A stretch of 64,000 nucleotides of DNA from positions 64,001 through 128,000 of the IMG/VR virus record IMGVR_UViG_3300032304_002285, one strand, 5' to 3'. The stretch is from a virus. How positions within the stretch are numbered: the first letter of the stretch is position 1; each line of letters begins with the position of its first letter. The translations under genes and the position numbers were made by a program. The notes beneath the pieces are model-generated. The model was given only the letters and a program-made list of their open reading frames with translations. It made no database searches and was not told where the DNA came from. This document shows, in pieces, positions 3,291-13,567 of this stretch.

Positions 3291-3330
3291 GGGACTTAGA
3301 AGGAAAAATCCTCTAAGTCCCTTTTCTTTT
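3291..3330 (+). terminator. Intrinsic terminator
   Basis: GGGACTTAGA/TCTAAGTCCC stem followed by TTTTCTTTT. Confidence 0.75.
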
Positions 3331-3391
3331 TGGTTTGATGGTGGAAATTACAGGGAGGCGAGTATAATAGAATCACAAGGAGAGGTAGTAA

Positions 3392-3715
3392 ATGGTAAAG
3401 AGCAAATCTCAGAAGCAAGTAGAGAGACGTAAGAAGATTGAGCATAACCGAAATGTTATGCAGAATCAGGGAAAGCCTCGTTATCTTCTGTATATCAAGG
3501 TTGACGGTGGTTGGAAAGCTGTGATGAGGTTTAAGACTATTACGGATGTAGATAAGCATTGTGAAAGTATGGAAGATATTCGGAAGAGAAATGCTTCTGA
3601 GTTGGTTGAGGCGAATATTGTTGAGGTGAAGACGGGTAAGGTAATTAGGCATGTTGCGCCTCATAAGGTTAGTGATCCGGCTATGTTGAGTGGATCGTTG
3701 GTGGCGAAGGTTTGA
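3392..3715 (+). CDS. Basic hypothetical protein
   Basis: 107-aa ORF with AGGAGAGG RBS. GGCGAGTATAAT (-10-like) lies upstream. Confidence 0.7.
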   Translation: MVKSKSQKQVERRKKIEHNRNVMQNQGKPRYLLYIKVDGGWKAVMRFKTITDVDKHCESMEDIRKRNASELVEANIVEVKTGKVIRHVAPHKVSDPAMLSGSLVAKV

Positions 3716-3734
3716 AAATAAATTTCAGGAAGTT

Positions 3735-3763
3735 TTGGATTTTCGGGTTCTCGCGGGTAAGAT
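3735..3763 (+). promoter_or_regulatory. Bipartite promoter motif, copy 1 (upstream of the tRNA island)
   Basis: TTGGAT-N17-TAAGAT. The motif recurs at 7738, 9345, 9805 and 11117. Confidence 0.6.
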
Positions 3764-3794
3764 AGGGTGTGACAAGAAGGTTGGTTGTAAGTGT

Positions 3795-3869
3795 TGCGGG
3801 ATATATCAGTGGTAGATTGCTAGCCTCATAAGCTAGATGTCGTGGGTTCGAGTCCCACTCCCGCTACCA
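3795..3869 (+). tRNA. tRNA-Met(CAT); fMet/Met/Ile2 identity unresolved
   Basis: Cloverleaf with anticodon arm CTAGC-CTCATAA-GCTAG, GGTTCGAGTCC T arm and encoded CCA. It has a 1:72 mismatch but lacks the three G-C pairs typical of initiators. Confidence 0.9.
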
Positions 3870-3879
3870 GTTTGAGATT

Positions 3880-3954
3880 CGGGTTGTCGTTTTAACATTT
3901 AAGACACAAGCCATGGGGCTTGAGATGCTGGTGTAAATCCAGCCGACTCGACCA
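3880..3954 (+). tRNA. Degenerate tRNA-Pro(TGG)-like gene
   Basis: Acceptor CGGGTTG/CGACTCG + A + CCA. T arm GCTGG-TGTAAAT-CCAGC. Anticodon arm CAAGC-CATGGG-GCTTG has a 6-nt loop. The D loop lacks GG. Confidence 0.55.
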
Positions 3955-3960
3955 AGTGTT

Positions 3961-3982
3961 GTTCTTTCAAAACTGAATAGTT
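3961..3982 (+). promoter_or_regulatory. rrn boxA/processing-like motif, copy 1
   Basis: GTTCTTTCAAAACTGAATAGTT, 6 nt upstream of tRNA-Ile. Recurs at 4864 and 8441. Confidence 0.55.
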
Positions 3983-3988
3983 CTTTTT

Positions 3989-4062
3989 CGGCATGTAGCT
4001 CACTTGGTTAGAGCACCACCCTGATATGGTGGGGGTAGAAGGTTCGAGTCCTTCCATGCCGA
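3989..4062 (+). tRNA. tRNA-Ile(GAT), CCA not encoded
   Basis: Acceptor CGGCATG/CATGCCG. Anticodon arm CCACC-CTGATAT-GGTGG. Followed by A-CTT. Confidence 0.9.
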
Positions 4063-4078
4063 CTTATTTTCCCTGAAT

Positions 4079-4153
4079 GCCAGCATAGCTCAATGGTAGA
4101 GCACCTTACTTGTAATAAGGATGTCGGGGGTTCAAATCCCTCTGCTGGCTCCA
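4079..4153 (+). tRNA. tRNA-Thr(TGT)
   Basis: Anticodon arm CCTTA-CTTGTAA-TAAGG, canonical D and T arms, CCA. Confidence 0.95.
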
Positions 4154-4207
4154 TTTGCTTTTCTTGGTTTTAGTTCTATTTTGGGCTAAAGCAAATAGGG
4201 GGCGATT

Positions 4208-4846
4208 ATGAGAAGTGGGATGAGTTGTTCTGATGCTGGTAGGCTTGGTAAAGAAAAATCGCTTGCCTTGCAGCAAGCAATGAAACAAGAAAGAATAAAT
4301 AAATACTTAGAAAATCCGAAATTGTGTGGTACGTGTGGAGCAATCATACCATATAATAAAAGAGTAAATAATTTTTGTTCTTCTTCTTGTTTCGCATGCC
4401 ATAACAACAAACAAAGAAGTCTATTAAATCCTTGTGTTAATTTTTGTATGAATTGTGGTAAGGATCTGAAATCAAAAACTCTTTTGTTTTGTAGTGGAAG
4501 TTGTCATAAAAAACATTCACATAATAAATATATAGAGCGGTGGCTTGCTGGAGAAGAGTCTGGCGGTATTGGCAAGGATAAAGATATTACTAGCCATACA
4601 GTTCGTGACTGGGTTTTTAAAAAAAGTGGTGGTAAGTGTTCAGTTTGTGGCGGAAGTGATTGGATGGGCAAGAAGATGCCTTTGATTCTGGATCATATTG
4701 ATGGTCATTCAAAAAACAATCGTCCTGAAAATCTAAGGGCTGTTTGTGGTAATTGTGATATGCAGTTGCCGACATACAAAAGCAAAAACAAAGGAAATGG
4801 AAGGCATTATAGAAGGGAAAGGTATAAGAATGGATTGAGTTATTAG
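4208..4846 (+). CDS. Free-standing HNH endonuclease with Cys-rich zinc-binding repeats
   Basis: CSVCGG...LILDHIDGHSKNNRPENLRAVCGNCD is an HNH motif. There are several CxxC...FCSxxC repeats N-terminal to it. Confidence 0.9.
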   Translation: MRSGMSCSDAGRLGKEKSLALQQAMKQERINKYLENPKLCGTCGAIIPYNKRVNNFCSSSCFACHNNKQRSLLNPCVNFCMNCGKDLKSKTLLFCSGSCHKKHSHNKYIERWLAGEESGGIGKDKDITSHTVRDWVFKKSGGKCSVCGGSDWMGKKMPLILDHIDGHSKNNRPENLRAVCGNCDMQLPTYKSKNKGNGRHYRRERYKNGLSY

Positions 4847-4863
4847 ATTTGTGATTCAATTTA

Positions 4864-4885
4864 GTTCTTTAGTAATTGAATAGTT
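4864..4885 (+). promoter_or_regulatory. rrn boxA/processing-like motif, copy 2
   Basis: GTTCTTTAGTAATTGAATAGTT, 5 nt upstream of tRNA-Ala. Confidence 0.5.
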
Positions 4886-4890
4886 TCTAT

Positions 4891-4967
4891 GGGGCATTAG
4901 CTCAGTTGGCTAGAGCGTTTGGTTTGCATCCAAAAGGCCATCGGTTCGAGCCCGATATGCTCCACCA
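4891..4967 (+). tRNA. tRNA-Ala(TGC)
   Basis: GGGGCAT acceptor with G3:U70. Anticodon arm TTTGG-TTTGCAT-CCAAA. CCA. Confidence 0.95.
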
Positions 4968-5046
4968 GTTTTTGTATCTTAGTTTATTGCCAAAGATGTT
5001 TGCAAGTTAAGCTATATAGCTTATATTCCTAAAAAAGGAGTAAGCC

Positions 5047-5538
5047 ATGCCAACTTGCAAAAGCTGTGGAGATAGATTTCCTACTTGGATCAAGATAGAT
5101 GGAAAGCAGAGATGTTTAAACAATAGAAAGTTTTGTTTAAAATGTTCTCCATTTGGAAGGCACAATACTAGTCCAACTCTTCATGTAGGATGCGAAAAAC
5201 TTTGCAATAAATGTGGTGAAAAAGATCCCAGTAAGTTTTATGGCAATAAGAGGCATATTTGTGGGAAATGCCATGCCAAGTATACTACTGAAAGAGGAAA
5301 ACGTAAAAAACAATTTGTTTGTGAAAAGCTGGGTGGTAAGTGTGTCTCATGTGGATATGATAAATATGTAGGTTCTCTTGATATTCATCATAAAGATCCA
5401 GCAAAGAAGGATTCTAATTTTAGGTCTAAAAGAGGATGGTCTGAAGAAAGAATATTAAAGGAAATAGAAAATTGTATCTTGCTTTGTCGGAATTGTCATG
5501 CAGCTTTTCATGCTGGAGAGTTAGCAATCGGTGTGTAG
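5047..5538 (+). CDS. Free-standing HNH endonuclease
   Basis: CVSCGY...LDIHHKDP...ENCILLCRNCHAAFH. AAGGAG RBS. The last codons overlap the 5' end of tRNA-Pro. Confidence 0.9.
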   Translation: MPTCKSCGDRFPTWIKIDGKQRCLNNRKFCLKCSPFGRHNTSPTLHVGCEKLCNKCGEKDPSKFYGNKRHICGKCHAKYTTERGKRKKQFVCEKLGGKCVSCGYDKYVGSLDIHHKDPAKKDSNFRSKRGWSEERILKEIENCILLCRNCHAAFHAGELAIGV

Positions 5539-5607
5539 CGCAGTTTGGTTTAGCGCGTCTGCCTTGGGCGCAGAAGGTCGGGGGTTCAAATCCCTCCACA
5601 CCGACCA
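5529..5607 (+). tRNA. tRNA-Pro(TGG)
   Basis: Acceptor CGGTGTG/CACACCG. Anticodon arm TCTGC-CTTGGGC-GCAGA. CCA. Confidence 0.95.
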
Positions 5608-5614
5608 TTTTCAT

Positions 5615-5916
5615 GAGGTTTCCAACTTGTGGCTGATTTCATCTTTTGTTCGGGATGAAGGCACTTACAAGAGGAGAACTGTAAGGTCCCAAGTAGGGCA
5701 GGAAGGGTAAGGCTGGGTCAATGCGGGTAAGAGTTTTCCTAACCGCAGTAGCCCGATATCTGGTAAATTAAAACACTGAACAACCAGATATAAGAGTAAA
5801 ATCTCTTCAATGCGGTGATGAACTTGTTGATCAGAGTTCTGAGCATTGTGGCTGAACAACTCGACTTGTTTGAGATGGGTAGGAAAGGTGGTTCCTTTCT
5901 TCTAGTTGGAAACCTC
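5615..5916 (+). ncRNA. Candidate ~300-nt structured ncRNA of unknown family
   Basis: A perfect 13-bp closing stem GAGGTTTCCAACT (5615-27)/AGTTGGAAACCTC (5904-16) encloses at least 6 hairpins. It fills the gap between tRNA-Pro and tRNA-Arg and has no credible ORF. Confidence 0.65.
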
Positions 5917-5924
5917 TCTATTCT

Positions 5925-5996
5925 GCTCCCGTAGTCTAATGGATAGGCACTTGCCTCCTAAGCAAGTCTATGAGAGTTCGATTCTCTCCGGGAGTA
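5925..5996 (+). tRNA. tRNA-Arg(CCT), CCA not encoded
   Basis: Acceptor GCTCCCG/CGGGAGT. Anticodon arm CTTGC-CTCCTAA-GCAAG. Followed by A-CTT. Confidence 0.9.
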
Positions 5997-6049
5997 CTTT
6001 TTGTCTTTTATATTTATGGTCTAATAGGGATAATATTTTAGGAGAGACC

Positions 6050-6526
6050 ATGAAAAAGAATTTGAAGATTGCTGGTGAGATATTAAAGCTTGCTAAGGGT
6101 TTGGTGGGAATGACCAAACAAGAGGCAGATAAAGTCGCTTTTGTCATGAGGGAGTTTCCTAATCATAATAAAGTGAATGATAAGGTTAGGAAGGAAGTAA
6201 AGAAGTATAAGTTTTTAACCTTGGATAACATTAAGAAGTTTGGTCAATCTGCTTCTTTTATGAGAGGCATTGATGATTGGATAGATTATGTGATTTCGCA
6301 AGGTATGGAAAACGTTTATTCAACTAGCGGTTTTGATTATGAAGATGACAAGGATGTTCTCAATGCAATGAAGCATTATGAAGACATGGATTCTGAATTG
6401 TACAAAAAATCCAGAGATGTTTTAGAGGAAAGAGCGACAGATTTGGCTATAAATTCTGTAATGGAAGCACTCTATCAAGAGATTTCTTCTATTGAAAAGG
6501 CCATAGATAGGTCCAAAAAGTTATAA
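6050..6526 (+). CDS. Hypothetical protein with shared N-terminal leader (KIAGEILKLAKGLVG)
   Basis: Start re-assigned to ATG 6050 behind AGGAG, because the longer track ORF overlaps tRNA-Arg. Confidence 0.75.
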   Translation: MKKNLKIAGEILKLAKGLVGMTKQEADKVAFVMREFPNHNKVNDKVRKEVKKYKFLTLDNIKKFGQSASFMRGIDDWIDYVISQGMENVYSTSGFDYEDDKDVLNAMKHYEDMDSELYKKSRDVLEERATDLAINSVMEALYQEISSIEKAIDRSKKL

Positions 6527-6532
6527 TTAGTT

Positions 6533-6606
6533 GCGGGTTTAGCATAGTGGTAATGTGCCACCTTGCCAAGATGGTTACGCGGGTTCGACTCCCGCCATCT
6601 GCTCCA
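6533..6606 (+). tRNA. tRNA-Gly(GCC)
   Basis: Anticodon loop TTGCCAA, T arm GCGGG-TTCGACT-CCCGC, TCCA end. Confidence 0.9.
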
Positions 6607-6616
6607 AGGTTTTTAT

Positions 6617-6694
6617 TCTCCGGTAGCTCAATTGGCCAGAAGCACTTCACTCTTAATGAAGGGGTTGGGGGTTCAAGTCCCTCCCGGAGAACCA
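6617..6694 (+). tRNA. tRNA-Lys(CTT)
   Basis: Anticodon arm CTTCA-CTCTTAA-TGAAG. CCA. Confidence 0.95.
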
Positions 6695-6708
6695 ATTTTT
6701 GTTTGTAT

Positions 6709-6785
6709 GCTCTGGTAGCTCAATTGGTTAGAGCACCAGCCTTTTAAGTTGGTTATTGGGAGTTCGAGTCTCCCCCAGAGCACCA
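6709..6785 (+). tRNA. tRNA-Lys(TTT)
   Basis: Anticodon arm CCAGC-CTTTTAA-GTTGG. CCA. Confidence 0.95.
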
Positions 6786-6792
6786 ATTTTAT

Positions 6793-6866
6793 TCCCTCGT
6801 GGTGTAATGGTAGCACGAAACACTGTTAATGTTTCTGTCTTGGTTCAAATCCAGGCGAGGGAGCCA
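6793..6866 (+). tRNA. tRNA-Asn(GTT)
   Basis: Acceptor TCCCTCG/CGAGGGA, G73, loop CTGTTAA, CCA. Confidence 0.95.
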
Positions 6867-6869
6867 AAT

Positions 6870-7010
6870 ACCTACATGCTCAATTGCCAGTCTGACGCAT
6901 GAGGTTTTAATGACTGGCTAAAGTCTGGGTGTATTAGGAAACTTACGGTGATGGAACCCAGAACAGAGGGTAAAGCCTCTGCCAAAACTTCAAATAAAAG
7001 GTTTTGGTAA
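6870..7010 (+). ncRNA. Candidate structured RNA (four consecutive hairpins)
   Basis: GCCAGTC/GACTGGC, TCTGGGT/ACCCAGA, CAGAGG/CCTCTG and CCAAAAC/GTTTTGG lie between tRNA-Asn and tRNA-His. Confidence 0.45.
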
Positions 7011-7034
7011 ACCGTTTTAGAGATTTCTATGGAT

Positions 7035-7110
7035 GGTGGTTTTGTTGTAAAGGAAGCATGGATGGTTGTGAACCATCAGGTGTAGGGTTCAAGTCCCACA
7101 TTCCACCCCA
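7035..7110 (+). tRNA. tRNA-His(GTG), weak acceptor and T stems
   Basis: Anticodon arm GATGG-TTGTGAA-CCATC. G-1/C73-compatible ends and CCA. Some mismatches in the acceptor stem. Confidence 0.8.
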
Positions 7111-7130
7111 AGTTTTTAGCGTAGGTGTTT

Positions 7131-7207
7131 GGGGGTATAGCTCAATTGGCCAGAGCATCGGTTTGTCACGCCGAAGGTTGCGGGTTCGATTCCCGCTACT
7201 CCCGCCA
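7131..7207 (+). tRNA. tRNA-Asp(GTC)
   Basis: Anticodon arm TCGGT-TTGTCAC-GCCGA, G73, CCA. Confidence 0.95.
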
Positions 7208-7216
7208 GTTTTATAA

Positions 7217-7293
7217 GGGATTGTAGCTCAATTGGATAGAGCATCTGATTACGAATCAGAAGGTTGGGAGTTCAACTCTCCCCATTCCCACCA
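7217..7293 (+). tRNA. tRNA-Arg(ACG)
   Basis: Anticodon arm TCTGA-TTACGAA-TCAGA. CCA. Confidence 0.95.
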
Positions 7294-7298
7294 GATTT

Positions 7299-7370
7299 GT
7301 CCCGTTCGATCAATGGTAAGGTCATTAGGTTCTCAGCCTAGGGATAGCGGTTCGACTCCGCTACGGGATA
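7299..7370 (+). tRNA. tRNA-Glu(CTC), CCA not encoded
   Basis: Acceptor GTCCCGT/ACGGGAT, loop TTCTCAG. Followed by A-CTT. Confidence 0.9.
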
Positions 7371-7386
7371 CTTTAAGAAGGGATTT

Positions 7387-7460
7387 GACCCGTTGGAGGA
7401 AATGGATAACTCACTTGGTTTTCATCCAAGAGATTAGCGGTTCAACCCCGCTACGGGTCA
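7387..7460 (+). tRNA. tRNA-Glu(TTC), CCA not encoded
   Basis: Acceptor GACCCGT/ACGGGTC. Anticodon arm CTTGG-TTTTCAT-CCAAG. Followed by A-CTT. Confidence 0.9.
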
Positions 7461-7467
7461 CTTTAAC

Positions 7468-7718
7468 GCCACTAAGGGACTAGGTTGCAAGTAGTCCAGA
7501 GTGGAAATCATCCAGGATCTTGGATAATCTCTTTACATAGGGATTATAGAAGAGAATGGGTGTAGTCGGAACTTGTGGGCAGGAAAGTTGGGCATACTCT
7601 TCGCCATCCGACTCTAAATAATTCACGTAATGTCACGAAAGCAGGGTACGGCTGTATAGCCCGATGGAGATTGTCCTGCTTGCTGGAGGGTGATGGTCCT
7701 AGCCCCTCCAATTTTTTT
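7468..7718 (+). ncRNA. Candidate ~240-nt structured RNA ending in a terminator hairpin
   Basis: Stems GGACTA/TAGTCC, ATAATCTCT/AGGGATTAT, AGTCGGA/TCCGACT and AAGCAGG/CCTGCTT, then TGGAGGG/CCCTCCA + T7. Confidence 0.45.
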
Positions 7719-7737
7719 CAAAACTTTTTTAGGATCT

Positions 7738-7769
7738 TTGGATTTAGAAGTAGTTCTGGGTGATATAAT
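7738..7769 (+). promoter_or_regulatory. Bipartite promoter motif, copy 2
   Basis: TTGGATTT...GGGTGATATAAT upstream of the 7806 ORF. Confidence 0.6.
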
Positions 7770-7805
7770 GATGTAAAGAGAACGTAGTGAGAAGGGGATT
7801 CGAGA

Positions 7806-8084
7806 ATGAGTGAAAGTGTTGAAGATCTGAAGCGTCAGGTTGCCCAGTGGAAATCGGTTGCGGCTTATCTGGCTGAGTGTCATGCTGCTTCTGCTGAGAC
7901 TGTTGCTGAGCAGAAGAAGTCTTCCAAGTATGAGAAGAAGCGCCATGCTGAGATTTGCAAGAAGGCGGCTATGATGTTGAAGCATGGGGATCTTGTTGGG
8001 GTAGTTGATCGGAGGTATGCCAAAGAAGGTTTCATTGAAGTGATTGAGCGTTGTGAGTTGGCGAAGGTTGAGTGTGAGAAGTAA
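7806..8084 (+). CDS. Hypothetical protein
   Basis: 92-aa ORF behind the promoter motif with a GAAGGGG RBS. Helical and coiled-coil-like. Confidence 0.7.
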   Translation: MSESVEDLKRQVAQWKSVAAYLAECHAASAETVAEQKKSSKYEKKRHAEICKKAAMMLKHGDLVGVVDRRYAKEGFIEVIERCELAKVECEK

Positions 8085-8095
8085 GTTTTGATAGT

Positions 8096-8169
8096 GCAGG
8101 TATCGTATAGTGGCAATACCCTAGTTTTCCAAACTAGCGCGGTGGGTTCGATTCCCACTACCTGCTCCA
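8096..8169 (+). tRNA. tRNA-Gly(TCC)
   Basis: Anticodon arm CTAGT-TTTCCAA-ACTAG. TCCA end. Confidence 0.95.
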
Positions 8170-8181
8170 AAGGTTTAAGAT

Positions 8182-8328
8182 TGGTCGGCAAGGTTTGGAT
8201 GTTCTGTGAAAGCTGACACTTGACTGTTATCAGATAGGATCGCAACCTGTTTGAGTCAAGATGCCTGGGGAACAGGCTTCAGGCGGAACGCAAGAATATC
8301 ACGGGTTCAAATCCCGTCCGATCAACCA
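8182..8328 (+). ncRNA. 147-nt tRNA-shaped RNA with a ~70-nt structured insert at the anticodon position
   Basis: Acceptor TGGTCGG/CCGATCA + A + CCA. T arm ACGGG-TTCAAAT-CCCGT is identical to that of tRNA-Leu(TAA). Variable-arm-like GCG-GAA-CGC. Internal stems CTTGACT/AGTCAAG and GCCTG/CAGGC. Confidence 0.65.
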
Positions 8329-8332
8329 ATTT

Positions 8333-8417
8333 TGAGGTCTTAATCGTACGGTGTTGAGCAGAACACAGAGGCGATGAATCCCATAGAACTGCTAATTCTA
8401 TGATGGGAAAGACTTCA
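8333..8417 (+). ncRNA. Candidate three-way-junction RNA with complementary (kissing) loops
   Basis: Closing stem TGAGGTCTT/AAGACTTCA. Hairpin loops GAGCAG and CTGCTAA are complementary (AGCAG/CTGCT). Confidence 0.5.
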
Positions 8418-8440
8418 TCTAAGTTTTGAGTAAGAGGTTA

Positions 8441-8462
8441 GTTCTTTAAAAATTGAATAGTT
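8441..8462 (+). promoter_or_regulatory. rrn boxA/processing-like motif, copy 3
   Basis: GTTCTTTAAAAATTGAATAGTT, 4 nt upstream of tRNA-Val. Confidence 0.55.
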
Positions 8463-8466
8463 CTGT

Positions 8467-8543
8467 GGGCAGTTAGCTCAGTTGGTTAGAGCATTTGGTC
8501 TACACCCAAAATGTCGGGGGTTCGAATCCCTCACTGCCTACCA
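8467..8543 (+). tRNA. tRNA-Val(TAC)
   Basis: Anticodon arm TTTGG-TCTACAC-CCAAA. CCA. Confidence 0.95.
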
Positions 8544-8554
8544 TTTTAAGTATT

Positions 8555-8639
8555 GGCCGGGTGGCGAAAAGGCAGACGCAACAGACTTAAAATCTGTCGG
8601 ATTTTATCCGTACGGGTTCAAATCCCGTCCCGGCTACCA
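8555..8639 (+). tRNA. tRNA-Leu(TAA)
   Basis: Anticodon arm ACAGA-CTTAAAA-TCTGT, long variable arm, CCA. Confidence 0.95.
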
Positions 8640-8642
8640 ATT

Positions 8643-8860
8643 TCAAATAAGTGGTCCCTGCTTGATCGTCCCAGTGATAAAAGCAAAGATCATTAAAAAT
8701 TGCTGCCACTTATTTGAGAACTTTTCGGCTTTCTTGTAAAGCCGATGGTGGAGGCGGTTAGGGAAACCTAATTGCCCTAGCGACACATGCTGGACTAGTG
8801 AGGCTGTAGTCTCATGAAACAAGTTGTGTGGCTTTCCGGTAAGAAGTAACCGGGCTTTCG
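8643..8860 (+). ncRNA. Candidate structured RNA(s) between tRNA-Leu and tmRNA
   Basis: 12-bp perfect stem TCAAATAAGTGG/CCACTTATTTGA, TCGGCTTT/AAAGCCGA, GGCGGTTAGG-GAAA-CCTAATTGCC and further hairpins. Confidence 0.45.
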
Positions 8861-8867
8861 TTCAATT

Positions 8868-9271
8868 GGGCCTGACATGGTTTCGATCAAGTGAATGAGG
8901 GTTAGGATTGCATGCAGAGGATGATCGTTGGCCTCTTAAAACTTCGATCAAGTAAGTAACTGCGGAAACTCTTGAGTTCCCCGCTATGCCCATTGCTGCC
9001 TGATCTAGGGTAGTAAAGGGTATGGTCTAAGCCATCAGCAAAGTCTATAAGGCTGATGGGGTTGTCTTAATGATTCGCTCTTGAGACACACAGAATGATA
9101 GGCTGGCTTCAAGGTGATGCCGGATAGCTAAGAAGCGAGAGTTCTGACGGCTGGATGCGCTTAACCTGCTGTGAGGGGAAAAGGCATTGAGAAAAACAAA
9201 TCACAGACAAGCATGTAGAGTCTTGCCGGAAAGCATTTGAGACCGGGGTTCGACTCCCCGCAGGTCCACCA
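8868..9271 (+). ncRNA. ssrA: tmRNA
   Basis: 5' GGGCCTGACATGGTTTCGA. 3' T arm GGTTCGACTCC followed by CAGGTCC-A-CCA with a G3:U70 pair. The tag ORF at 8962-9003 follows TAACT and encodes AETLEFPAMPIAA*. Confidence 0.92.
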
Positions 9272-9278
9272 CAAACAT

Positions 9279-9319
9279 AGGGATATCAAGGAGTTACGGC
9301 TTCTTGGTATCCCTTTTTT
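9279..9319 (+). terminator. Intrinsic terminator after tmRNA
   Basis: AGGGATATCAAGGAG/CTTCTTGGTATCCCT followed by a T run. Confidence 0.75.
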
Positions 9320-9344
9320 ATTTCCCAGGAATTCTTTAAATGTT

Positions 9345-9372
9345 TTGGATTTTCGAGATTGTTGGGTAATAC
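9345..9372 (+). promoter_or_regulatory. Bipartite promoter motif, copy 3
   Basis: TTGGAT-N16-TAATAC(AT). Confidence 0.65.
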
Positions 9373-9421
9373 ATGGATGAAAAAATAATTTACTGTAAGA
9401 ATTTGTGGAGGGTTATTAGGG

Positions 9422-9778
9422 ATGATTACTGCCAAAATTAAATCTGAAGATCAAGAAGTTTATATTGGTTGTTACTATGAAATGCCTGATGGAAAGATTG
9501 CTTGTCTTACTTGTTGGAACGGGATAAAGAAGACTTTTAGTTTTTATTGTGATGATGGGCTTGGCCTTCAGGAATCGCCATGTGAAGAATTGAAGAAGTG
9601 GGTTTTGTGTCGAGACTTGAATGATTTTCCTAATAGCAGTGATCCAAGGTTGCCTTATGTCTTTGATCTTTTTTGGGATCTAAAGAGGGTTTCTGAGCTT
9701 CGGTATGGGTTGGAACATGGTCATGAGGATTCTGATTTAATAAGGGATGAAATGGTTCGGTGGGGGATTTCTCTTTAG
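9422..9778 (+). CDS. Hypothetical protein
   Basis: 118-aa ORF with GGAGGG RBS, behind the promoter motif. Confidence 0.7.
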   Translation: MITAKIKSEDQEVYIGCYYEMPDGKIACLTCWNGIKKTFSFYCDDGLGLQESPCEELKKWVLCRDLNDFPNSSDPRLPYVFDLFWDLKRVSELRYGLEHGHEDSDLIRDEMVRWGISL

Positions 9779-9804
9779 TTTTTTCAAAGAATTAGAAAAA
9801 CGCT

Positions 9805-9832
9805 TTGGATTTTGATTGCTTGATGGTAATAC
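9805..9832 (+). promoter_or_regulatory. Bipartite promoter motif, copy 4
   Basis: TTGGAT-N16-TAATAC(AT). Confidence 0.65.
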
Positions 9833-9880
9833 ATTGTTGTCGATAAGAGATTGAGTTAATCACGATAGGAGATTGGCAAA

Positions 9881-10498
9881 ATGTTGAACATTTGCTTGTT
9901 GAAAATCTTGGATAAAAACAATCCGACTCCCGCTATTGATGCATTGATGAAGGTTGGATTGAGCAATGTTGAGGCTCAAGATGCTGTTGTTGAGCTTTCG
10001 GGGTCATTTCTTTCTTTGGTTGCTGTTAGGACTGAAGATATCTGGCCTGTTGATTTGAGTGAGTTTTTCGTTTTTGAGTTTATTCAAAGGGTTGAAATTA
10101 CTCTTGAGACAGCTTTGTTTCCCAAGGAAAAGATTCATGGGATTCAGGCTATCCGTGCTGCCACGGGAATGGGCTTGGTGGATTCCAAGGATACGATTGA
10201 GAATCTTTTTATGGGAGTGCATACCAAGATTCAGTCTAAGCCTGAAGAGGTTGAGAATTTGAGGAAATGGTTTACTCTTACTGCTGAGGAGTTGGGTCCG
10301 GTTCCTCAGCCTTATGTTCCTGGTCGGGTTGTTCAAAAAAACACGATTAGCCATTGTGTTGGTAGTAGTCATAAAGAAGAGGCAATGGAGCACATGTCTG
10401 CCTTTGCCAAGGAGCTTTTGGATGAAAAGAAATGGGAAGCTGCTCAGAACATTTGCAACTTGTTGAGCATTTTGAAGACTGTTGAAGAATATCAATAA
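9881..10498 (+). CDS. Ribosomal protein bL12 (L7/L12) CTD-like domain protein, paralog 1
   Basis: EKIHGIQAIRAATGMGLVDSKDTIE resembles the bL12 CTD pattern KI.VIK.VRA.TGLGLKEAK.LVE. The C-terminal helix pair is shared with the paralogs. Confidence 0.7.
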   Translation: MLNICLLKILDKNNPTPAIDALMKVGLSNVEAQDAVVELSGSFLSLVAVRTEDIWPVDLSEFFVFEFIQRVEITLETALFPKEKIHGIQAIRAATGMGLVDSKDTIENLFMGVHTKIQSKPEEVENLRKWFTLTAEELGPVPQPYVPGRVVQKNTISHCVGSSHKEEAMEHMSAFAKELLDEKKWEAAQNICNLLSILKTVEEYQ

Positions 10499-12016: not shown

Positions 12017-13567
12017 ATGTTTAATAAGTCTATGGTTGCCAAAGAGCTATTGAAAATATCCAGCTTGATTTTAGGTGGTAGGGGCTGGAGTTGGAGCAAT
12101 TACGGGGCATGGGTTTTACCAGATGGTAAGGTATTGCCTGTTGCTGTTGAGTTTACTCATTATGATGTTGCGGCTGAATATTTTCAGAAAAAAGATCCTA
12201 AGCATTTCAATAACATTTATTCCTTGGATCAGTTTTTCAATGAGGGTTGGGTTAGGGTGGTTTTTAGGCAGTCGTTGAGTGTAGAGATTAAGAGCCGGGT
12301 TTATCCTGCTCAGAGAGAAGTTTTATTGAAAATGGTTGAGGATTATCCAAGGCGGAATTTTTACATAGATGACTATCCCTCTTCGATTGTGACTGAGGAT
12401 GCTGAGGAGGCTAGGGATAGGATAAGGGCTGCAAGTCTTAAGAAGGCTACCGAGATTAAGTGGAGTGATTATGGGGCATGGATTTTACCTGATGGTAAGG
12501 TTTTAAGAGTTGGGTATCAAGAGCACATGGAGACTGCTGAGGAGTATTTTAATAAACACAAGATTGAGATTGAGACCAATCCTTATGTTGAGGCTTTCAA
12601 GAGGGATTGGGTAAGGGTTGTCTTTAAGGAGATGGGGATAGAGATGGGGAGTAATCTTACTTCCAAGCAGAGATATGTATTGGAAGATATGGTTGATGAT
12701 AATCCTTATACGTCAAAAGTGTTTTTTGATAGGAATGGTACTACTAATATTAATTTCAGCACGGATGATAAAGAGTCGGCAATCAATAAGATTAGGGCTG
12801 CTGGTTTGGTTAATGCTGCTTCATTTCATTTTACAGATTATGGGGCATGGATATTGCCGACTGGGGGAGTGTTGAGGGTAGAGGATCATCAACAACATGG
12901 CGCTGTTGCCTCTAAATATTTAGCAGGTAAGGGCATTGAGGTTGATAGTTATAATAGTTACAGTGAGGCTTTCAAAGAGGGGTTGATTCGGATTCAATAT
13001 GGATCTGATTTGAATATTGAGATCAATAGTCGTATTACGCCAAGGCAAAGGAATACTCTTCTTGCCATGGTAGATTCTTTCCCGAAGAAAACGGTTATGA
13101 TAGACAAGGATATTTATACGACTCATTCTCAGACTTTTGCTTTAGAGAATAAGGAAGATGCGAAAGAGAGAATAAGGTCTGCTAGTATGAGGGTTGCTAA
13201 GGATTGGAGTTTTCGGGATTACGGGGCATGGGTATTGCCTAATGGAGATGTTTTACGGGTCAAGGGTTTTTTTGAGCATTCGGAGGTTGCTGGTAGTTAT
13301 ATGAAATTCAATGATATTGTTTTTAAGGGAAGTCCTTATGATAAGGCGTATAAGATGGGATGGGTTCGTGCTGTATTTCTTCCTGATTTAAATTTTGACA
13401 TTCAAAAGGGTTTAACTTCTCAACAGCGTTCGGTTCTCACTGACATGTTAGATGATTATCCTAAAGAGACTGTTATTATTTCTAGACCATCTAGAGAGAT
13501 ACAATTTGATGAGAAAGAAAAGGCTTTGAATTTACTTAGGGTTGCTTCTTTAAAAAAAGTTGGATAA
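12017..13567 (+). CDS. Leader-bearing protein with four tandem ~125-aa repeats
   Basis: Start ATG 12017 (MFNKSMVAKELLKISSLILG). Four units of YGAW.LP.G.VL.V...H...GWVRV...QR..L..M, each ending RIRAAS-like. Confidence 0.8.
   Translation: MFNKSMVAKELLKISSLILGGRGWSWSNYGAWVLPDGKVLPVAVEFTHYDVAAEYFQKKDPKHFNNIYSLDQFFNEGWVRVVFRQSLSVEIKSRVYPAQREVLLKMVEDYPRRNFYIDDYPSSIVTEDAEEARDRIRAASLKKATEIKWSDYGAWILPDGKVLRVGYQEHMETAEEYFNKHKIEIETNPYVEAFKRDWVRVVFKEMGIEMGSNLTSKQRYVLEDMVDDNPYTSKVFFDRNGTTNINFSTDDKESAINKIRAAGLVNAASFHFTDYGAWILPTGGVLRVEDHQQHGAVASKYLAGKGIEVDSYNSYSEAFKEGLIRIQYGSDLNIEINSRITPRQRNTLLAMVDSFPKKTVMIDKDIYTTHSQTFALENKEDAKERIRSASMRVAKDWSFRDYGAWVLPNGDVLRVKGFFEHSEVAGSYMKFNDIVFKGSPYDKAYKMGWVRAVFLPDLNFDIQKGLTSQQRSVLTDMLDDYPKETVIISRPSREIQFDEKEKALNLLRVASLKKVG

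Follow-up and report, generated by a model that had tools for sequence, protein, structure and literature searches.

The window, by which we mean the whole 64,000-nucleotide stretch of DNA that was analysed, comprises bases 64001-128000 of a 180,758-bp IMG/VR record with 40% G+C, which CheckV estimates to be about 51% complete. The record contains 31 tRNA genes and one tmRNA, together with genes for a PolIII-alpha-like DNA polymerase, an NAD-dependent ligase, a CCA-adding enzyme, tail fibre proteins and a DnaB-like helicase; three bL12-like genes are also present. On the basis of the gene content and of the tRNA and tmRNA set, the source is taken to be a fragment of a very large phage, and because the phage carries a tmRNA, its host is taken to be bacterial. 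One of the phage tRNAs is an amber suppressor with the anticodon CTA; ARAGORN calls a tRNA with this anticodon, labelled 'Pyl', at G000:C1:5701-5775 (L010:5701-5775). The long ORFs of the window are uninterrupted under table 11, so that any recoding of TAG would be partial or limited to certain genes.

ARAGORN places 17 plus-strand tRNAs at 3795-8639 of the window, followed by the tmRNA. We note that the segment at 7036-7107 (+), which has no ARAGORN call, scores 37.4 bits against the Rfam tRNA model, and may be a tRNA that has diverged or something that only resembles one. Within the array there are also two HNH homing endonuclease genes, which recall SegB of T4. Over the interval 3300-9900 the numbers of promoter-like and terminator-like elements are not above those in shuffles, and the only strong terminator-like hairpin (9279-9314) lies past the tmRNA, which fits transcription of the array as a single long RNA. 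The features that concern us are as follows, the two spacers being read from the sequence.

4208-4846, HNH endonuclease gene within the tRNA array
5047-5538 (+), HNH endonuclease gene within the array, ending 10 nt inside tRNA-Pro
5529-5607 (+), tRNA-Pro(tgg) with encoded CCA (ARAGORN; Rfam tRNA 67.6 bits), the upstream boundary of the RNA
5608-5614 (+), U-rich 7-nt spacer UUUUCAU
5615-5627 (+), closing stem, 5' arm GAGGTTTCCAACT, mean pairing probability 0.98
5904-5916 (+), closing stem, 3' arm AGTTGGAAACCTC, 100% complementary to 5615-5627
5917-5924 (+), 8-nt spacer UCUAUUCU
5925-5997 (+), tRNA-Arg(cct) (ARAGORN; Rfam tRNA 58 bits), the downstream boundary of the RNA
8868-9271, tmRNA, after the tRNAs (Rfam 15)

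An earlier note on this DNA had described the gap between tRNA-Pro and tRNA-Arg as a structured RNA closed by a perfect 13-bp stem, and its account of the boundaries is accurate. The two arms (5615-5627 and 5904-5916, with 276 nt between them) pair perfectly; the stem begins 7 nt past tRNA-Pro, which ends at 5607, and stops 8 nt before tRNA-Arg, which starts at 5925. There is also no credible ORF on the plus strand of 5615-5916, whether table 11 is applied or TAG is taken to encode Gln. By our own arithmetic, 64 kb should contain about 0.5 perfect 13-bp inverted repeats within a span of 500 nt, and the stem by itself is therefore unremarkable. What is remarkable is where it lies, with one arm at either end of a single inter-tRNA gap, a position that is not explained by chance.

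Predicted fold and kink-turn hairpin

The minimum free energy (MFE) of the RNA is -102.6 kcal/mol, compared with -81.0 +/- 5.0 kcal/mol for dinucleotide shuffles (n=100), giving a z score of -4.35; none of the 100 shuffles was as stable. For 45 random 302-nt windows from the same genome the z score was -1.0 +/- 1.5, and one of the 45 fell below the RNA's -5.0. The fold energy is thus strong but not unique in the genome. The plus strand is more stable than the minus strand by 17 kcal/mol (-102.6 against -85.5 kcal/mol), and 14 of the 99 pairs in the predicted fold are G-U pairs; taken together, the strand asymmetry and the G-U pairs point to selection on a plus-strand RNA and not on a DNA palindrome. 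When the whole precursor (5529-5997) was folded, it gave two cloverleaves, with the RNA domain between them unchanged and the closing stem kept.

Internal helices were taken from the MFE fold and its pairing probabilities. All those that the earlier note had named are present, with pairing probabilities of 0.67-0.99. The closing stem encloses hairpins A and B, a central G-U-rich stack and hairpin F, while hairpins g, C, D and E sit inside the central stack. In the following list, p is the pairing probability.

5638-5659 (+), hairpin A: UUCAUCUU/GGGAUGAA, loop UUGUUC; p 0.94
5664-5685 (+), hairpin B: CUUACA/UGUAAG, 10-nt purine-rich, Shine-Dalgarno-like loop AGAGGAGAAC; p 0.67
5688-5714 (+), central stack, purine-rich 5' strand: CCCA, GGGCAGG, GGGU and GGCU, with its partner at 5850-5879; p 0.87-0.96
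5715-5754 (+), hairpin g: outer GGGU/GCCC, inner UGCGG/CCGCA, 16-nt loop beginning GUAAGAG; p 0.98-0.99
5756-5791 (+), hairpin C: 9-bp AUAUCUGGU/ACCAGAUAU, A-rich 18-nt loop; p 0.98
5792-5807 (+), hairpin D: AAGAG/CUCUU, loop UAAAAU; p 0.93
5808-5848 (+), hairpin E: box-C/D-type kink-turn as judged from sequence, predicted helices and geometry scan
5850-5879 (+), central stack, 3' strand, with second copies of UUGUGGCUGA and CUGAACAAC; from the fold
5881-5901 (+), hairpin F: AGGAAAGG/CCUUUCUU, 5-nt loop UGGUU; p 0.87

Because of its many G-U pairs, the central stack should be regarded as a thermodynamic prediction only. Three words of 9-10 nt are present twice in the RNA, namely UUGUGGCUGA, UCAAUGCGG and CUGAACAAC. 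The first of these precedes hairpin A and recurs at 5846-5855, and the segments begun by its two copies align weakly (score 27 against 19.1 +/- 3.9 for shuffles, a level reached in 9 of 200). The repeated words hint at an internal duplication or a tRNA ancestry, with marginal statistics. A loop-loop pairing between hairpins B and g was considered and rejected, the best complementarity (8 bp) being at chance level and matched by 80 of 300 shuffles. The phage genome contains only chance 11-13-mers complementary to the RNA.

By its sequence-level geometry, hairpin E is a canonical kink-turn: the C stem, the 3-nt bulge, the tandem G.A/A.G pairs and the NC stem are all found within 5808-5848. The C stem has 6 bp, CAAUGC/GCAUUG (5808-5813/5843-5848), and is followed by the bulge GGU (5814-5816), the tandem G.A/A.G pairs (5817-5818 with 5841-5842), a U.U pair (5819/5840) and a 6-bp NC stem (5820-5825/5834-5839). 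The hairpin thus shares its stem, 3-nt bulge, tandem sheared G.A, U.U and second stem with box C/D RNAs, U4 snRNA and Kt-7, which are binding sites of L7Ae/15.5K, and like box C/D RNAs it carries RUGAUGA and CUGA boxes (GUGAUGA as box C and CUGA as box D). Weak matches of C/D snoRNA models (E 0.29, in an Rfam search at E<=10) align with the same boxes. Unlike the box C/D guides, however, the RNA is without C'/D' boxes or guide regions and belongs to a phage with a bacterial host, and a kink-turn is a motif rather than a family. In a geometry scan of the 64-kb window hairpin E was the sole strong case, the only other being a poor one inside a gene, and in about 1.9 Mb of other DNA the scan found no comparable kink-turn hairpin. 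We note also that a 10-mer, AGAGUUCUGA, which includes the CUGA of the D box, is present both at 5832-5841 and in the tmRNA at 9137-9146; its presence in both is probably due to chance.

A kink-turn has one of two roles: it attracts an L7Ae-type protein, or it puts a bend into a helix that brings the loop into a docking position. The L7Ae family (PF01248) has no match in the 180.7 kb of phage sequence, which represents about 51% of the genome according to CheckV, and the neighbouring ORFs contain no recognisable RNA-binding domain. A host protein could instead bind the kink-turn. As far as it can be read from sequence, the motif speaks for a protein partner or for an RNA with a defined structure in three dimensions.

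Search for family membership and relatives

Rfam 15 was searched with the window at gathering score, and with a 401-nt slice (5560-5960) at E<=10 using lax filters. This check, which the earlier note had proposed, gave no family match to the RNA in either search. The only gathering-level matches in the window are the tRNAs and the tmRNA at 8868-9271, and the slice returned only the flanking tRNA and noise from C/D snoRNA and CRISPR-repeat models. Inside the RNA there is no Rfam 15 match to GOLLD, ROOL, raiA, OLE, HEARO, 6S, SRP, group I or II introns, T-box, tmRNA or tRNA, and Rfam likewise finds none of the RNase P, 6S, SRP and group I cores that had been sought by eye.

Relatives were sought with several methods, including a single-sequence covariance model of the RNA (R1), which scores 394 bits on the RNA itself. 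No relative was found by blastn among 50,697 GenBank phages, and four IMG/VR pattern scans drawn from the RNA gave only chance or coding matches. An exact 20-mer from the RNA is absent from GTDB genomes. R1 found nothing in 102 whole IMG/VR records (43 DNA-polymerase relatives, 12 selected by tmRNA motif and 47 arbitrary), and no relative in four tRNA-array loci searched with filters off. There is no paralog or second copy of the RNA in the 180.7 kb of phage sequence.

The tmRNA provided a further route to related phages. A 19-nt core, GAGGATGAYCGTTGGCCTC, is common to the tmRNAs of this phage (8860-9280) and of its nearest relative (L101:17310-17840), and occurs also in 14 IMG/VR contigs, of which many belong to very large phages, and in over 120 contigs from metagenomes. 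Using this core as an anchor, we collected 14 viral and 120 metagenome loci; R1 found nothing in 13 viral and 120 metagenome tmRNA loci.

The phage itself appears to be a near-orphan, since among 75 viral loci encoding relatives of its DNA polymerase the closest (G001) is only 52% identical. This closest relative, a 133-kb fragment, has only a tmRNA and a tRNA-Arg(cct), and no such RNA. The neighbouring proteins encoded at 6050-6526 and 12017-13567 have essentially no homologs among 5.8 billion protein clusters, and the sole other contig with matches to the neighbour proteins, a JGI contig, is from the same phage. The glycosyltransferase at 499-2343 has no relative in IMG/VR. No relative of the RNA is thus visible, though relatives may still exist, given that a single-sequence model is short-ranged and that the clade is barely sampled.

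The earlier note had called the RNA a discrete, possibly new class of non-coding RNA. The first part of this description holds, in that the RNA is a discrete, structured, non-coding unit on the strand of the tRNAs with no Rfam match; the word class is unsupported, because none of the collections searched contains a second member, and hence there is no covariation or conservation to draw on. This is the main weakness of the candidate: it stands alone, so that its conservation cannot be proved computationally until relatives have been sequenced.

Proposed release from the tRNA precursor and competing explanations

We regard the RNA as a real, well-bounded and strongly structured candidate, whose fold is new and whose niche is already known from the stable non-tRNA RNAs of phage tRNA arrays. 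In our judgement it is probably a stable, compact non-coding RNA of about 300 nt, freed from the tRNA-tmRNA precursor by tRNA processing, and may act as a scaffold or ribonucleoprotein in tRNA or translation biology. The RNA would be made within the long tRNA-tmRNA precursor of the phage. Cleavage by RNase P at the 5' end of tRNA-Arg would generate its 3' side, and its 5' side would come from endonuclease and exonuclease action within the U-rich 7-nt spacer, past the CCA that tRNA-Pro encodes. The 13-bp terminal helix would then shield both ends from exonucleases, and several hairpins, one of them bearing the kink-turn, would radiate from the central helix stack.

These release steps follow from established tRNA processing, and the position of the RNA fits the suggestion, made in the earlier note, that maturation of the flanking tRNAs could liberate it. 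The domain bounded by the closing stem fits exactly into the gap between the two tRNAs, and the fold is far more stable than those of shuffles and of typical genome windows; both speak for this explanation. Only the neighbours, namely the tRNAs, the tmRNA and the three bL12-like genes, suggest a role in tRNA biology or translation.

A bolder proposal is that the RNA is the first representative of a kind of phage RNA not described before, a compactly folded kink-turn particle embedded in the tRNA arrays of huge phages, released by tRNA processing, and working on tRNAs or ribosomes while the host is being taken over, either as a ribonucleoprotein or as a scaffold that docks with itself. In a still bolder variant, it would descend from RNase P RNA by radical rearrangement and would have kept the ability to recognise tRNAs. 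We offer this proposal as speculation, and consider it doubtful.

Among the rivals, the one that survives best is that the sequence is functionless: a spacer produced by processing, a remnant in decay, or a small mobile element with inverted repeats that came to lie between tRNA genes. The sequence occurs once, its terminal inverted repeats are perfect and no relative of it can be detected; the two HNH homing endonuclease genes just upstream mark the array as a site of mobile DNA, and strong predicted structure does occur occasionally elsewhere in the genome (in 1 of 45 windows). Inverted repeats are what would be expected of a miniature inverted-repeat mobile element, but no target-site duplication can be seen in the flanks UUUUCAU and UCUAUUCU and there is no second copy in 180.7 kb, which tells against this identity. 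The strand asymmetry and the G-U pairs suggest selection on an RNA, and a complete canonical kink-turn is unlikely in junk. We consider a functionless origin unlikely.

A derivation from tRNA has also to be weighed, in which the RNA would be a mimic or decoy, a much expanded relative of class II tRNAs that would sequester an enzyme that binds tRNA or an anticodon nuclease of the host. Both sides of the D arm in the phage tRNA-Ser(gct) find a match in the segment UGUGGCUGA...AAGGC (5628-5662), which forms the same GCU/GGC stem and is followed by hairpin B, which resembles an anticodon arm; the repeat of the 10-mer UUGUGGCUGA and the weak alignment that it begins (9 of 200 shuffles) could be read in the same way. 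The D-stem-like helix, however, has a pairing probability of only 0.38, neither a T-loop sequence nor a single-stranded NCCA end can be read in the RNA, tRNA and tmRNA models have no match inside it at E<=10, and ARAGORN finds nothing there even with introns allowed. We consider such a mimic very unlikely. Two more specific identities of this sort were rejected: a tRNA with a giant intron by the same empty ARAGORN search, and a tmRNA because the call at 5621-5911, obtained at an 80% ARAGORN threshold, is noise (at this setting the real genome and the shuffled one each receive 30 such calls). A double tRNA-mimic of the DUF7873-associated kind or a YrlA-type Y RNA finds no support: there is no T-loop and no match to tRNA or YrlA models, and the neighbouring ORFs are HNH genes or belong to no family.

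Equally improbable, in our view, is a self-assembling 'ornate' RNA that forms dimers or larger assemblies as do ROOL, GOLLD and OLE, which are described as homo-oligomers in PMC12286853. The 8-nt loop of hairpin E, GUUGAUCA, contains the palindrome UGAUCA (5828-5833), exposed beyond the kink-turn, and this could form a kissing dimer; but a 6-nt palindrome in one of seven loops could easily arise by chance, and the RNA is much smaller than ROOL and GOLLD and is not matched by the Rfam models.

The remaining rival is that the RNA is an RNase P RNA in drastically reduced or rearranged form, either the ribozyme with which the phage itself processes tRNA 5' ends or a derivative of that ribozyme. 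The RNA is of similar size to a type-A RNase P RNA (RF00010), is structured, and lies in a tRNA array, and huge phages do encode RNase P RNA. In G004, a complete 420-kb phage with terminal repeats, we found a 362-nt type-A RNase P RNA scoring 148.4 bits (cut-off 100), at G004:C1:307574-307935 = L096:1501-1862 (-), inside a tRNA array and 16 nt upstream of a tRNA-Thr. G051 (476 kb, classed by IMG/VR as 'provirus') has a 214-nt miniature RNase P-like RNA scoring 48.9 bits against RF00010 (E 8e-15), at G051:C1:312469-312682 = L120:1501-1714 (-), with a tRNA-Ser about 1.3 kb away. Judged from its sequence, the miniature keeps CR-I and CR-V words able to pair as P4 and seems to be without the specificity domain. 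Among the papers listed in our literature searches there was none on a phage-encoded RNase P RNA. These two RNAs from related huge phages, one full-length and one miniature, may prove a more general lead than the candidate itself. The G004 array also has two further inter-tRNA gaps, L096:2555-2809 (-) (255 nt, longest ORF 38 aa, -0.40 kcal/mol per nt) and L096:484-660 (-) (177 nt, longest ORF 57 aa, -0.44 kcal/mol per nt). Both fold very stably, Rfam gives no gathering-level hit for either gap, and they may hold further uncatalogued array RNAs.

Compared by eye with the RF00010 consensus, the candidate contains words that resemble CR-I, J5/7, J12/13, P13, CR-V and J16/15. They are AAGGUCC, with a possible bulged U beside a CCCA/UGGG helix; GUAGGGCAGG; AAGGGUAAGG; a stem followed by GUAAGAG (compare P13 of type A); ACAACUCGACUUG; and UGGGUAGG, after which come a hairpin and CUAG. 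Their arrangement is not that of RNase P RNA, however. The CR-V-like word precedes the J16/15- and J18/2-like words, which is the wrong order. The P2 pairing is absent, and P4 (CR-I GAGGAAAGUCC... with CR-V ACAGAA...GGCUUA) is unconvincing, with only 4-5 bp possible, either CCCA/UGGG with the possible bulged U or AAG-UC/GACUU. Both of these candidate pairings are about 36 nt and a hairpin away from the closing stem, when CR-V would be expected just before the 3' strand of P1. There is no statistical match either: no RNase P family at E<=10 in the 401-nt slice with lax filters, and nothing for RF00010 (gathering score 100 bits) at E<=10 in the entire 180.7 kb. Small size alone cannot explain this failure, since the 214-nt miniature reaches 48.9 bits. 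R1 with filters off does not match the RNase P RNA of G004 or G051, and local alignment to the two is no better than the shuffled mean, although this is a low-power test. We therefore think it most improbable that the RNA is an RNase P RNA.

Comparison with known systems

Huge phages carry dozens of tRNAs, a tmRNA and look-alikes of ribosomal proteins, and to our knowledge the non-tRNA RNAs of their tRNA arrays are almost unstudied. With its exact boundaries, its confident fold and a canonical motif for protein binding or bending, the RNA at 5615-5916 is a good candidate for experiment.

Functional RNAs from tRNA precursors are reportedly known in E. coli, where Lalaouna et al. are said to have described, in 2015, sRNA sponges excised from such precursors (3'ETS-leuZ and the metZ-metW-metV internal spacer). 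Those spacers are short, mostly unstructured and act by base pairing, whereas the RNA described here is large and highly structured and has no target in the phage genome above chance.

GOLLD and ROOL are large multi-helix RNAs of phages and prophages that often lie by tRNA genes; they are conserved families and are much larger than this RNA. The earlier note had compared the RNA with them, and the comparison is apt for the genomic niche but does not extend to the RNA itself: the models of GOLLD (RF01998) and ROOL (RF03087) do not match it, and it has no visible relative.

The closest parallel in genomic setting that we can draw is with T4. The species 1 and 2 RNAs of T4 are presumed to be freed by tRNA processing, and we know of no function for them to date. 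T4 rnaC (139 nt) and rnaD (119 nt; both within AF158101 70908-71171) are stable non-tRNA RNAs that adjoin tRNA-Arg in an array with a homing endonuclease, as is the case here. The RNA is not a homologue of them that we could recognise, in that R1 with filters off gave only noise at the T4 locus (L360), and it differs from both in being more than twice as long and in having a long closing stem and a kink-turn.
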